Positions 204 to 14,199 of a stretch of 64,000 nucleotides of DNA are shown one piece after another. Under the pieces are notes generated by a model. The model made no database searches, was not told the origin of the DNA, and was given only the letters and a program-made list of their open reading frames with translations. Source of the stretch: Amoebidium appalachense. Lineage: Eukaryota > Protista > Ichthyosporea. Position 1 is the first letter of the stretch; each line of letters begins with the position of its first letter. Made by a program: the position numbers and the translations under genes. The stretch lies in assembly GCA_963693365.1 (NCBI GenBank), contig CAVNZM010000004.1, positions 12,118,468 through 12,182,467 on the forward strand. Reading direction: 5' to 3'.

Positions 204-1100
204 CTCGTCAATGGTTACTGTAGGGCCGTTTTGGTAGGGCCATGTGAGGGAGAGACTGCCGGCAGGGAGGGAAGACAGGCCACGGAACACGGCACAGACC
301 AACTGCCCCGTATGGCTGTATGAAGTGGTGGCTGTCTCCTGCAGCCGGTCTAGCAGCCCGGCAAGAACCAAACGAAGACCCTCCGGTGTGTTGGTGTTAT
401 CGTCCAATCGCACGGCTCGGTTTGGATCCACGAGCCCAGCAGTTGTCCCTGATTGGATGACGTGTAGAAGGAGCAATTGCCATTGGCCAGAATTCAGCAA
501 GCCGATCTCGGTGTTGCGCATGAGATCAGCGTCACGAATAGTCTCCTGCTCAGAGGGTGCCATGGGCAGCACACCCACCAACCGGGCCCACCGGGTGGCC
601 ACCCACACGGCCAAAAACATTTCGGGTCGGGCCAGGTACAACCCGAGAATGAACCGGCACTTGTCCACTCCGTCGGTGCACACAGTGACGTCCATATTGA
701 GGGCCTCGGTGGCTCCTTCAGCCGTTGCTAGGCAGCAGCGAATCACAGGGGTTGGTGCCTTCACGGCCGACCGATTGATGCTCACCGCCAGCCCCTCCAG
801 TGCGGGCACAATCTGATACTCCAGCCAGTGCTGTCGGAGATTTCGGTCGGTGGCCAATAGGATTTTCCCAGCTGGGGCATATGGCGGTTGCATCGCCGCG
901 GGCTGTGGGCGCAAACATAAATCCAAATCGCTCGACTCATCGCACGTGAAAAGCGCCGCTGACCCATAGATGTGCGGAAGGAAAGGGCCAATCAGGTTTG
1001 CCGATTGGAGGTGGGCATATACCTGCTCGGCCAACTGGAGCTTCTCCTCAACCCCCCGCTGTAGGCCGGCCACGTGGTCGACAAAATAGCGCTGTGACGT
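204..1100 (-). other. Pol-beta superfamily nucleotidyltransferase, non-canonical poly(A) polymerase/TUTase (Cid1/GLD-2/RDE-3) type
   Basis: [21 protein letters not shown] (GS at 960-965, DxD at 921-929), KAPTPVIRC, third Asp in NMDVTV (690-692), then [11 protein letters not shown] and [17 protein letters not shown], matching the KxWAxxxGl and GgLsSY motifs of Cid1/TUT enzymes. Same reading frame and exon as the RdRP. Confidence 0.85.
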
Positions 1101-4100
1101 CCGACCAATAGAATCCTGCACCGTACCCAACGGGCAAATCGGCCGGCTTTGATTTGCACCAGCCGACATGGCCGCCAGGTGATCCCCCGGGATCCAGGCA
1201 AAACCAAGGCATGACTCGGAACCAGTAATCGGCGCCAGTTTGCCCTGTGATGAGGGAGTGTAGGCAGCCTGGTACCATGCCGATGCGGCATCCAACCAAT
1301 CATCATTGGTGGGCTGGCCCTTGGTCACCCCCGCCACAATCTGTTGGAATATCTCCCGATGGTGCTGCCACACACTTGCAGCCGCCTGCTGCATGCCCTC
1401 AAACGCTCGTCCTCGATTGGCCGCCATCAGGGGGTGCAATGCTGGGCACCAGCCAATCAAAAGCTCGCTCTCGTGGTCTGCGCCATAAATAGACACGGCC
1501 TGCGCAATTTCCACGCAATACTGCACGTGGGCAGTTCGTGCCGGTGCCATAAACCGCCTAGCCCCCGGGCGCTGAAATACTCTGTGCACTTTTGCCGCCG
1601 AAACCACCTCTGCGCGCAATTCTGCTGCGGCATCATACCCCTTTGCCCGGCGATACAACTCACCGAGAATTTTTCCGGACGTGTAGGAATCTTTGTCGGC
1701 CTTTTCCATGAAATCGGGGTATCCCTTGATCTCGATCAACTGCATTGCCTGCACGGGCACCATGGGTGCAATGCCCGTCTTGAGCGAATCCACCGCCACT
1801 GATTGGGCCTCGGCAACGGTTAATGCAATTTGATTGGTTGCCCCGCCTTCGAGCATGTCGCATAGCGCCAGGTGCATGGATGCGACCCGGCCCAACAAAT
1901 CGCTATCCATGGCCTTCGAAATGTACTGGCCCAAATTCCGCTCTGTGGAATGGACCAATGACAACTCGTCGTCGGAACCCATAGAGCCGGCCAATGACGA
2001 CTCGTCGTCGGAACCCGTCCAGCTGCAGGGGTCGAGGAAATTGGCCCAAAAAACGTCGTCGTGCATTAGTGCAAGAGGGTTTAGGGGGCGGGTTTCAAAC
2101 AGTTGGCGTGCCTGCTCCTGGACTTGTGCGTAATTCAGGGGTAAGTGCCGGTATCGCTCAGGGGGGATCAACCGTTTATCCCAAATAAGGGAAAGTTTAT
2201 CCCCGTCGAGATCACCGCCGCTGCATGCAGCCAATAGGGACGACCGGATAACTGAACTTGCCGGAACAATGACGACATTCTTGTAGGCCCTGAGCTCGGG
2301 CCTGTCCACTACACGCACCACCTGCACGTCCCCTGGATGTAGGCATGGGTTGCGGTACACCATGCACTGTGACGTCACACTGGCAAGAATAAAGGACCCC
2401 CCCCTCTCCCCCACAGGTGCTTCGTGGGTGTAGTCGATGCTGGCAAATATCTCGCCGTCGTTGAGGCAGCCAATCGGATCGGGGACTGCAAGTAGCATCA
2501 CCGAATCAGGCACGGGGATCCAGGTCTTGGCAACCAATCCCCTCACGGCCCTGTGGTATGCGGTCTGGACCAATGAGAAGAGGAATGGCTCCCCAAGAAT
2601 GTCGATCCCTGATTGGACGGCCACATCCAAAACACTGCGGAGAGGAAGTGGAACCATGGGTCGCACGTGCTCGTACGCTTTGCCCCCCTCCACCAATAGG
2701 GTGAGAGCATCCGAAAGTGCCCTCTCCTGCAGGTCGGCCAACGCGCCGTCCGGGGACCACGTGCCAATTTGTGATTGGCTCTCGCTGTTGCCTTTTTCGG
2801 CAAGCGACGAGAGGAGGGTAATAATCTCACGGTTGAGGCTGACCTTGGTGGGGCGGGATACACCCACCACCCCAAACACCACATGTCTGGACTGGAGTTT
2901 CTCCGTGCTCTCCCGGTACACCATCTTAACCCCTGGACCGTACCGCCGCATGTCTGGGTCGGTGCTTGGATCAACCACCAATGCCACCCCCTTGCACCCC
3001 GCCCACCGATATTGGAACGCGGACGGAACATACCCCAACCCAAGTGCGGTGGAGATTTGCTGTGCCGTGGTGTAACTCACTTTTGCTGCGCCGTCCGTTA
3101 ACAAATCTTGGCCCGAGAACGTGCGGATATCCGCAACCTTCACCGCTTCCGTAGTCGGAATCTCAATGGTGGGTTTGTCGGCAGTGCAAAACAGGGCTAG
3201 ACGTGAGCGTGCCTTGGCCGTTTCCTGGCTGGTGGAGCCAGAGAACACCTCAACGTCAGCCTCGTCAACTGCTCGAACGATACGGTGCCTGAGCAAAGAA
3301 ACGTCGTCCGATTGGCCGTTGCCCACATGAACAAAGAGCGCAGATTGGTTGCGCACCATGCTGTTGCTCGCGTTGAGAAACCGGTAGGTTTTATCGTGCA
3401 CCACATACCCATTCGTAAGAATCTCCCTCACACGATCGCGTGCATATGTTCCGCTTATCTTCTGGAATTGCTCCTCTCGGAACGTAACGACGGTCAGTGA
3501 TGCCCCTGGTGTTGCAATGGCCTCACGAAGCATCCGGCTACATTCGGTGGCCACCGAGGGAAGGGGAATAGTACGGGATGGAGTAATGATAACACGTGGC
3601 ACTGACACGTGATTGGGCGGCATGGAAACGGACGGTGCTGATAGGCTAGAAAGTGCCTCTTGCAGGTGTTCGAATTCAGCGGCGCTGTCCGACCAATAGT
3701 TGCACTCTAGCCGCCGACGAGTTTCATACAATGTCGCGGCTATAACGGCCAGTTTTGATTGGTCACCCGCTGCCGTTTGCACCTGGAATCGGACTTTGTG
3801 CAGCACTTTTTCGCTGGCTGCCTGTGGGGAAAATGCCGCGGTTGCGTAAAATGCCGATAGCGCCCACCAAATCTCTCGCCCAATGGCTGAATCGGAATTA
3901 TAGCCGGGAAGATCGACCCACAGGGGCTTGCTCCAATCAAAAACGGGAGAATGGCGCGCTGCTGTGGCGACGGAAATCCGTGTGTCGAATAGGGGGACAG
4001 GCACTGCCGCGTGATTGGTGAACGCCTGGTGCAGGCCTAGCCAATCACACACCAGGGATTGGCGGGTGGTGGGGACGGAGAAACATATAGCTGCCGCCGT

Positions 4101-4420
4101 CGACACTTGGCTGAAGATGGGCCCAGAGAGGTTCCTCTCCTCCACGAGATCACCGTCCCTGTTCTCTTTTTCTGAAAAAAGAAAGGCGGGAGACGAAAGT
4201 GGGACACACACACGGAAAAACGGCGTAGCACTGGACGATTCACTGCTGATAACGATGAATCCAGCTATTTGATTGGTGGGGATTCGCATGATGTAACGCG
4301 CGGATGCATGGCTGAATGAAACGTCGAGTGACCCCCTGGGATAGAGGGTGAGGGCAAGTGGTTCCGGGATGGCTGTTTGCTCTTCGAAGGTGGTGGGAGT
4401 AGTCAGGACACCCAGCGTGG

Positions 4421-13414: not shown

Positions 13415-13445
<31 letters not shown>

Positions 13446-14199
13446 GGGAGGGGGGGGGAGGGGGGGGGAATACCTGCTGAAAGACCAGCGGCACCCTCTC
13501 CACCAAAAACAGAGCCATCTTGTCTCTGTTGAGTGCCTTCATGCGATAGATCAACATGGCTGCTACCAGGGTCTTCCCTGCACCCGTCTCAGCAACTAGC
13601 ACAATGTCCTGAAGAAGCGCCTCGAGGTACGCCTTGATTTGGTAATCCCGTGGCGTTTTTACGACACATCCCTCCCAGGAAAACTCCTCTGGAACAGAAG
13701 GGCTTGCAAACCGAATGGGGGTGGTTGGTTTCGATGCCACCTGTGCGGCCAAACGGGATTTCCACCCGCCTTCAGACCCATCATCGGGCACCCCATCATC
13801 ATTCACGATGATATGATAATTCGTCTCACCCCGTTGTTGGACGTTTGAAAAACGAGGGTATGCCTCCCACCATTTTTCCTTGGGGCCAAGTTGGATCCCA
13901 TCGATGCACACCTTGTCAGAGCCAAAACTGATAACGTGTGTGCTTGAAGGCCCTGCTGCTAGCTCTTTACCCAGCGAAGATTTGCAATGATGACACGCCA
14001 CGTCGCTCTTTATGAAATTCTTCTTGCTGTTGCCCCCTTTGGCCAGAGGTCTCAGTTCGACTTTTTCGGTTGCGAATGCTTTGTGCTCGGGCTTGATTGA
14101 TAAGTGGACGTCCTTGCTACCCTTTACAAAGAAAAATATTTCGTCTGTCGCGAAAAGCTTGCGGTGGCAGGCCAAGCAGGCAAGCCCACTGGTTGCCAT
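204..14199 (-). CDS. Multidomain RNA-silencing protein: RLR-CTD-like Zn domain + RIG-I/Dicer-type SF2 helicase + eukaryotic RNA-dependent RNA polymerase + Cid1/TUTase-like nucleotidyltransferase (3'-partial, >=2244 aa)
   Basis: Exons read by hand, all GT-AG: 14199-13474, 11938-11731, 9864-9514, 8482-8043, 6984-6683, 5923-5438, 4421-204. Another GT donor follows at 203, so the gene continues outside the window. Phases match at every junction provided one base is restored in the C-run at 9564-9569. In-frame stops lie upstream of the ATG at 14199. Diagnostic motifs of all four domains are present in order. Confidence 0.9.
1185..3605 (-). other. Eukaryotic RdRP catalytic domain (QDE-1/Rdp1/RDR alpha-type)
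   Basis: Minus frame of exon 4421-204: [70 protein letters not shown] (DLDGD at 2199-2213), [40 protein letters not shown]. Confidence 0.96.
6683..13660 (-). other. RIG-I/Dicer/FANCM-family DExD/H helicase domain (exons 1-5)
   Basis: Q motif PRDYQ; motif I AETGAGKT; Ia [75 protein letters not shown]. Confidence 0.95.
10247..10563. repeat. 53-bp minisatellite, 6 copies, in intron 2 of the helicase-RdRP gene
   Basis: Unit AATAGACACAACACCCGATAT(T/C)TCTTGAACTAACTGATAACCTATCCACCTGT starts at 10247, 10300, 10353, 10406, 10459 and 10512, head to tail with no spacers. Confidence 0.95.
13905..14190 (-). other. N-terminal zinc-binding domain resembling the RIG-I-like receptor C-terminal regulatory domain (RLR-CTD / Yippee-Mis18 fold)
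   Basis: [18 protein letters not shown]...DVHLSI...AF...[13 protein letters not shown]: two CxxC pairs about 55 aa apart, with a central His and a CxxCxxxhG end, as in RLR CTDs. Confidence 0.65.

Follow-up and report, generated by a model that had tools for sequence, protein, structure and literature searches.

Can one polypeptide unite a module that recognises RNA ends, a helicase, an RdRP (RNA-dependent RNA polymerase) and an enzyme that tails RNA, and is such a protein confined to one organism or shared by a family? These questions are raised by a gene of the ichthyosporean Amoebidium appalachense, which lies in a stretch of 64,000 nucleotides (contig CAVNZM010000004.1, positions 12,118,468 to 12,182,467), called here the window. 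The gene is on the minus strand, from 14199 to 204, and its seven exons, joined by predicted splicing, would encode a zinc domain, a DEAH helicase, an RdRP and a nucleotidyltransferase (NTase), in this order. The gene is real, and it is a member of the published clade of helicase-bearing RDRs: the DEAD-box and helicase-C domains of the predicted protein are N-terminal to the RdRP, and the GxGKT, DE[C/A]H and DxDGD motifs are intact. The N-terminal domain of the RIG-I-like receptor (RLR) type, the C-terminal tailing enzyme, the KH domain and the tunnel domain found in this clade make up an anatomy, which appears to be undescribed in its full form.

Domains of the predicted protein

The AlphaFold2 model of the zinc domain (21 sequences) had a mean predicted local distance difference test (pLDDT) score of 82, and its best Foldseek match was the C-terminal domain (CTD) of DRH-3 (E 6.3e-5). 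When the model was compared by VIA with 48,161 representative chains, the top nine matches were all LGP2, MDA5, RIG-I, DRH-1 or DRH-3 (Z 9.2-12.1), with alignments of 101-114 residues at 11-17% identity; the next folds were MsrB1 (Z 7.4), Mis18 (7.0) and cereblon (6.0). As modelled, the domain has the RIG-I/LGP2/DRH-3 CTD fold, and it must be noted that the fold alone shows no function. ESM Atlas returned generic beta-tent families (At4g08330 0.91; low recognition 2112), which left an RLR CTD and Yippee as alternatives; it was the fold searches that told the two apart. Conserved Lys or Arg residues are found, by sequence alignment only, at positions 26, 36, 59-61, 96, 109 and 123. The domain begins at residue 7 with nothing in front of it, and no CARD or other signalling domain is present. 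Inspection by eye of sequences supplementing an earlier study (PMC4791657, DataSheet7 rows 36-38, 90, 126, 129) showed that Dictyostelium RDR2a/b, Nematostella RDR1 and both Phytophthora RDRs start with a CxxC...Cx(2-4)C pattern resembling the CTD-like domain. The Hydra sequence in the same supplement opens with a similar cysteine pattern, whereas Dictyostelium RDR1, unlike RDR2a/b, begins directly at the helicase (both by eye).

The CTD (amino acids 7-123) is followed by the helicase (181-657) and the RdRP (1112-1742). Compared with the PDB, the helicase part of a 41-sequence family profile matched AncD1D2 (4.9e-95), DCL1 (1.5e-75), LGP2 (1.4e-65) and RIG-I (2e-60), thus by profile score the helicase seems somewhat nearer to Dicer helicases than to RLRs. 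With DRH-3 and the RLRs (RIG-I, MDA5, LGP2, DRH-1) the protein shares the zinc-binding four-cysteine CTD fold and a Hel1-Hel2i-Hel2 helicase; it differs in that its CTD precedes the helicase, CARDs are absent, identity is as low as given above, and the module is fused to an RdRP. The window protein is not an RLR, even if we suggest below that part of it works like an RLR module.

The RdRP part of the family profile matched plant RDR2 over residues 149-1124 (PDB, E 1.7e-169). The preliminary description of the locus had placed a linker between helicase and RdRP. This was only partly right: the PH-like domain of plant RDRs spans the junction of exons 6 and 7 (hhalign probability 93.6%), and most of exon 6 has no assigned domain. 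No likeness to the plant RDR RRM was seen in exon 6 (hhalign probability 0.1%), and the match of the helical region to plant RDRs was unconvincing (4.8%). PAZ and RNase III domains were not found by Pfam in the seven exons or in 13 homologs. A Dicer-like protein was considered and rejected, since both domains are missing. Because the parts examined hold no nuclease domain, production of Dicer-type siRNAs (small interfering RNAs) would need a separate Dicer.

The last domain in the window is, judged from motifs and profiles, a nucleotidyltransferase of the Cid1/GLD-2/TUTase (TENT) family with three aspartates. G-S, D-x-D and the third Asp are all present, and the sequence profiles gave the arrangement of a Pol-beta fold with hG[GS], DxD and third Asp followed by a central helical domain. 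ESM Atlas scored 0.96 for NTP_transf_2/MTPAP-like clusters, and a profile of 40 homologs gave 119.9 bits for the window stretch vs -1.4 for the best of 200 shuffles. A 14-sequence NTase profile matched CutA (1.9e-14), GLD-2 (1.5e-12) and Cid1 (8.6e-8) in the PDB, and also TUT4, Tailor and URT1. Profiles were required for this, as exon 7 used as a single-sequence query against the PDB found no nucleotidyltransferase. Where the nucleotide-recognition loop (PAP_assoc), which decides between U and A, would be expected, the sequence has a WP motif (DP in Phytophthora); there is no PF03828 match, and the window ends there. Phytophthora-type members (P0219-P0221, P0077, P0224) have Glu for the third catalytic Asp, and DP where others have WP. 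The NTase motifs of a Caulerpa (P0222) and a Desmophyllum (P0223) helicase-RdRP protein look degenerate or misaligned; these two branch outside the main clade and possibly form a second subfamily.

Complete homologs, of which 11 were checked, extend 528-586 residues further. The last 518 residues of one of them, the Hydractinia protein P0212, folded with a mean pLDDT of 89. Residues 1-81 of this model resemble KH domains (Z up to 9.2); for residues 89-516, roughly the final 430 of the protein, trypanosome RESC1/RESC2 are the best structural matches (Foldseek and VIA re-alignment, Z 20.7-22.6; the best match, Z 22.6, has a root mean square deviation of 3.6 over 280). Cet1-type RNA triphosphatases match the tunnel region less well (Z 13-17; Cet1 17.1). 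The likeness to RESC1-RESC2 and Cet1 consists in the fold of the tunnel barrel, for P0212 only, and in several Arg residues conserved across the family alignment. The family tunnel differs from both in its position, after a KH domain and as the terminal part of a fusion with an RdRP, and Cet1-type glutamate motifs do not, by eye, appear to be conserved: the strand that ends in RFG lacks a conserved ExE, and the last strand has one acidic residue at most. RESC2 is reported to bind the 5'-triphosphate of guide RNAs and to lack two of the three catalytic glutamates (PMC10201420), and the acidic-residue pattern of the family would fit a RESC2-like binder.

The preliminary description had named the four domains in their present order, had seen neither PAZ nor RNase III in the visible part, had read the C-terminal region as a Pol-beta nucleotidyltransferase and had allowed for more domains beyond the window edge. 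These readings were borne out by the folds, Pfam matches, profiles and intact motifs, by the ESM Atlas score of the NTase and by the KH and triphosphate-tunnel folds of the longer homolog.

Relatives of the protein

With exon 7 as the query, 162 proteins were recovered from 7984 candidates of similar length, and 20 from 2881 that were longer. The family includes proteins of Hydra, Hydractinia, Rhopilema, Sanderia, Eurytemora, Artemia and Macrostomum, and further of Prorocentrum, Effrenium, Dinobryon, Spumella, Phytophthora and Aphanomyces; those of Caulerpa and Desmophyllum are divergent. Among 71 homolog rows, which include two pairs that are isoforms or cluster mates, the NTase was covered in 60, and the triad was kept in 53 of those 60; 31 rows combine Walker A, DExH and DxDGD with the triad, and four cysteines are present as well in 26 of the 31.

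The NTase profile had 1904 matches at E <= 0.001 among 1.84 billion representatives. Domain order was scored on the best 150 of these 1904; the domain profiles used for this were derived from members of the family, and the 150 contain some of these source sequences. The counts that follow refer to this set. All 39 matches of at least 2250 amino acids (39/39) have helicase, RdRP and NTase in order, and the CTD was found in 26/39 and KH or tunnel in 38/39 of them. The NTase has a GS motif with a DDD triad in 37/39 and with DDE in 2/39. RdRP or head domain lies upstream of the NTase in 73 of the 77 matches with more than 250 upstream residues, and the NTase stands alone in 51/150. As far as profiles can tell, the all-in-one design is widespread in databases, from algae and water moulds to crustaceans and jellyfish, within one eukaryote-wide helicase-RdRP clade that keeps the modules together. 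The preliminary description knew of no characterised protein with all four domains. Within the literature searched this holds, but the rarity it had implied was overstated, the full design being common in protein databases.

An RdRP tree (FastTree, 59 sequences, 541 columns, rooted on plant RDR1/2/6, and without Dictyostelium, Nematostella and plant RDR3-5) placed the window protein in a clade with Phytophthora and Hydra proteins with support 1.0. Its neighbours in the tree, on a long branch, are two dinoflagellate proteins (0.977). Pairwise identities correlate across CTD, helicase, RdRP and NTase (Spearman 0.72-0.83); the pairs are not independent, so this is no proof of co-inheritance. The same CTD-helicase-RdRP-NTase order is found in the Hydra and Phytophthora proteins, from which the window protein differs, in the case of Phytophthora, by an Asp instead of Glu as third catalytic residue. 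Search of JGI metagenome and viral contigs with exon 7, which detects close relatives only, found no related loci. A viral origin was rejected: the gene is spliced, its homologs are eukaryotic, and no viral match was found.

Helicase-RdRP fusions were, as the preliminary description stated, known from Dictyostelium, and its account can be extended: DEAD-box/helicase-C/RdRP proteins were described in peronosporomycetes, Dictyostelium, Hydra and Nematostella by Bollmann et al. (2016, PMC4791657), who also report that some Dicers of those organisms lack a helicase and that the ortholog of P. sojae was verified with overlapping complementary DNA segments and RACE (rapid amplification of cDNA ends). 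The Phytophthora sequences in their supplement have 2694 and 2706 amino acids. In three Phytophthora species, a clade member is reported to be the only Rdr (PMC3804510). An InterProScan table of 2023 gives helicase and RdRP, plus a HIT-like domain in two species (PMC10080066). The words nucleotidyl, zinc, RIG-I and C-terminal are absent from the main text of PMC4791657, and we found no description of the sensor, tailing, KH and tunnel domains in the literature, where subscription papers and some supplements may hold one.

Gene model

The best model has six GT..AG introns of 759-1866 nucleotides with agreeing junction phases, and an in-frame stop sits upstream of the ATG at 14199. Four alternative splice models are all stop-free and give proteins of 2207-2244 amino acids, in agreement with the single protein of more than 2,200 residues proposed in the preliminary description. 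The motifs C8/C11/C69/C72, ETGAGKT, DEAH, TAS, QSRGRAR, DLDGD and YGS..DLD..D are intact. Scored singly against a family profile of 2588 positions, made from 28 homologs only, the exons tile it in order without overlap, exon 6 being the weakest match (Table 1). A six-frame scan, which covered 1512 open stretches of the window, gave no further family piece below E 0.4. The gene runs past the window edge, because a GT donor follows 204.

Table 1. Predicted features of the gene, with positions in the window
Feature	Positions	Strand	Evidence and remarks
Exon 1 (amino acids 1-242): ATG, RLR-CTD-like zinc domain, linker, helicase motif I ETGAGKT	13474..14199	-	ResIII E 3.7e-8; profile 3-223, 237.9 bits
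RIG-I/LGP2/DRH-3 CTD-like zinc domain (amino acids 7-123), N-terminal	13831..14181	-	AlphaFold2, Foldseek, VIA
Exon 2 (amino acids 243-311): helicase Hel1 with DEAH	11731..11938	-	profile 224-292
Exon 3: motif III (TAS), start of Hel2i	9514..9864; alternative donors 9575, 9608, 9624	-	profile 294-399; 3' end ambiguous
Exon 4: Hel2i, Hel2 motif IV	8043..8482; alternative acceptor 8499	-	profile 411-544
Exon 5: Helicase_C, motifs V and VI	6683..6984	-	PF00271 E 3.7e-15; profile 546-644
Exon 6: region between helicase and RdRP, start of PH-like domain	5438..5923	-	profile 674-779, 9 bits
Exon 7 (1406 amino acids): PH-like and helical region, RdRP core, RdRP head, nucleotidyltransferase	204..4421	-	profile 798-2048
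Eukaryotic RdRP core	1647..3587; DLDGD 2213-2199	-	PF05183 E 4.3e-102; Arabidopsis RDR2 E 6.3e-49
RdRP head domain	1176..1595	-	second stretch aligned to RDR2; family domain profile
Cid1/GLD-2/TUTase-family nucleotidyltransferase	204..1064; YGS 968, DLD 929, third Asp 692	-	ESM Atlas, profiles; intron cuts just after WP motif
Start of intron 7, GT donor at 203	1..203	-	exons for ~540 more residues inferred beyond window

Is the window copy an intact gene, or is it broken or mis-joined, either by a real frameshift in exon 3 or by the joining of helicase and RdRP exons of two genes? Some observations count against an intact single chain. The junction of exons 3 and 4 is the only ambiguous one, and there the best-scoring exon 3 (to 9514; 1702.9 bits vs 1687.3, 1669.1 and 1667.5 for the uncorrected models) requires one extra base in the G run 9564-9569, read as X. 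The joining of the seven exons into one transcript is a prediction, and no RNA junction was seen. To this may be added the low score of exon 6. On the other side, the three other splice choices are in frame uncorrected, at the cost of 15-37 residues of Hel2i; the break falls in a G run, and as the window is rich in such sequences (85 G runs and 77 C runs of at least 12 bases) an assembly slip is plausible. The other junction phases match, the motifs are intact, the PH-like match bridges exons 6 and 7, and all 39 long homologs are fused. Eleven contigs of the sequencing run X1 matched exon 7 at 99% or more (29/30 bins, no other letters listed). No splice joints or loose ends were found in contigs of the four sequencing runs compared with exon 7, of which none is recorded as RNA and one, X4, gave no matching contig. 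One X1 contig extends 139 letters beyond 4420. At this place the genome contains a repeat of pure CA, 86 bases long, which a short-word contig would hardly cross, and the extension is therefore a weak hint of splicing. Taken as a whole, we regard a broken or mis-joined copy as quite improbable.

The introns are dense in homopolymers and contain long CA/TG repeats, and about six tandem copies of a 53-base unit were seen by eye inside intron 2, at about 10245-10565.

Proposed function and significance

We propose, with moderate confidence, that the protein is a one-chain RdRP complex, which would select RNA by its ends, tail the 3' end and copy the RNA into dsRNA (double-stranded RNA) for a separate Dicer. 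We favour this reading because the same parts are assembled from separate proteins elsewhere, DRH-3 with the RdRPs RRF-1/EGO-1 of C. elegans in one case and RdRP with Cid1-family enzymes in the other. The RLR-CTD-like domain together with the Dicer/RLR-type helicase would take hold of the end of a duplex, which probably is blunt or carries a 5'-triphosphate, with ATP used for loading or moving. The TENT-type nucleotidyltransferase may then add untemplated nucleotides to the 3' end, thereby providing a single-stranded entry for the RdRP or a mark, and the RdRP would copy the tailed strand. The KH domain and the RESC1/2-like tunnel, seen only in homologs, could bind RNA in single-stranded form as well as a 5'-triphosphate, be it that of the template or of the product, which would probably stay unhydrolysed. 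Dicer and Argonaute would act in trans on the dsRNA to make silencing RNAs, and the likely targets would be viral and transposon RNA. It must be noted that the analysis shows the identity of the domains and their conservation, whereas we infer from these each reaction step, including that tailing and copying take place in cis, and a role against viruses.

Precedents for the pairing of RdRP with a Cid1-family nucleotidyltransferase are the RdRP complexes (RDRC) Rdp1-Hrr1-Cid12 of S. pombe, Rdr1-Rdn1/Rdn2 of Tetrahymena and Rdr1/2-Cid1/Cid2 of Paramecium (PMC4066745). The subunits are separate there, whereas RdRP and NTase of the window protein share one open frame, exon 7. The helicases differ as well: S. 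pombe Hrr1 is an Upf1-like SF1 helicase, that of the window protein is an SF2 helicase of the Dicer/RLR type. Paramecium Rdr1/Rdr2 with Cid1/Cid2 are reported to be needed for dsRNA-induced RNA interference (PMC4066745), and Paramecium RDRs to have to copy foreign dsRNA before Dicer cleavage (PMC12876857). DRH-3, whose CTD is reported to prefer 5'-triphosphorylated dsRNA, acts in RdRP-dependent 22G siRNA biogenesis (PMC8464030).

It is conceivable that the order of events is the reverse, the RdRP starting on untailed RNA and the NTase tailing the products (short 5'-triphosphorylated RNAs or the new strand) for handover to Dicer or Argonaute or for decay, while CTD and tunnel read the protein's own 5'-triphosphorylated products. 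NTase, KH domain and tunnel are all downstream of the RdRP in the chain, and DRH-3, the top Foldseek match of the CTD, is proposed to recognise RdRP-made 5'-triphosphorylated RNAs (PMC8464030). Position in the chain, however, does not set reaction order, and two end-reading modules suit one input and one output end equally well. We consider tailing of products rather unlikely, but still the most serious competitor of the one-chain complex that tails before copying.

Another explanation would dispense with siRNAs: the protein could be a sensor-triggered amplifier of dsRNA or 5'-triphosphorylated RNA, or could tail viral RNA for decay, in Dicer-independent innate signalling. The RLR-type sensor fold agrees with this, as does a report that a TUTase acts against RNA viruses in C. 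elegans (10.1101/209114). Furthermore, Nematostella RdRPs are reported to be induced by poly(I:C) (PMC8476169), yet no secondary siRNAs are reported as detected there (PMC12768352). A purely innate role is nevertheless improbable in our view, as the CTD starts at residue 7 and leaves no CARD or other signalling domain, the Dictyostelium helicase-RdRP RrpC is described as needed for the spreading of small RNAs (PMC3661229), and the clade provides the sole Rdr of Phytophthora (PMC3804510).

Some observations speak against the proposed one-chain complex that tails and then copies. The Nematostella result just cited does so, and in Branchiostoma, which is not known to carry the helicase-RdRP clade, no secondary siRNAs are reported as detected either (PMC6396948). 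Pfam recognised the window NTase weakly (PF22600, E 0.048, 14.2 bits at a cut-off of 27), and 6/13 homologs were above the cut-off. The WP motif takes the place of the loop of base choice. The KH domain and tunnel lie outside the window, and their presence in the window gene is expected from the homologs. The sequence is compatible with tailing either before or after copying, and no biochemical or genetic data on the CTD, NTase, KH domain or tunnel of any member were found in the literature.

The neighbourhood of the gene was inspected by eye. Head-to-head with it, at 16777-20714 on the plus strand, lies a gene whose 923-amino-acid stop-to-stop frame (17943-20714) contains many C2H2 zinc fingers with TGEKP-type linkers, and which probably has an upstream exon near 16777-17349. 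Two exons at 47812-49654 on the minus strand read like a membrane-anchored ubiquitin-conjugating enzyme, presumably of the UBE2J/Ubc6 type. A long Lys/Glu/Ser-rich low-complexity coding stretch at 62653-63627 (plus strand) is possibly the tail of a chromatin protein, which is a guess.

How RdRPs choose their templates and why they associate with tailing enzymes are open questions of RNA interference, and the role of many animal RdRPs outside nematodes is described as open, too (PMC6396948, PMC12768352). With sensor, helicase, RdRP and tailing enzyme in one chain, template choice and the association with tailing could both be tested by point mutants of a single purified protein, and homologs exist in the laboratory cnidarians Hydra and Hydractinia. 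That a CTD of the RLR type and a Dicer/RLR-type helicase stand side by side in eukaryotes other than animals is relevant to the question of how RIG-I arose. It is possible, rather than probable, that the family represents an ancient machine for RNA defence in a single chain, spread across the eukaryotes, which would read foreign RNA at both ends, tail it and copy it, and would correspond in fused form to the complexes of DRH-3 with RdRP and of RdRP with Cid. As part of the same tentative view, the sensor-helicase module, which oomycetes, dinoflagellates and chrysophytes have in permuted order, may be the pre-animal source of the CTD-helicase pair of RLRs.

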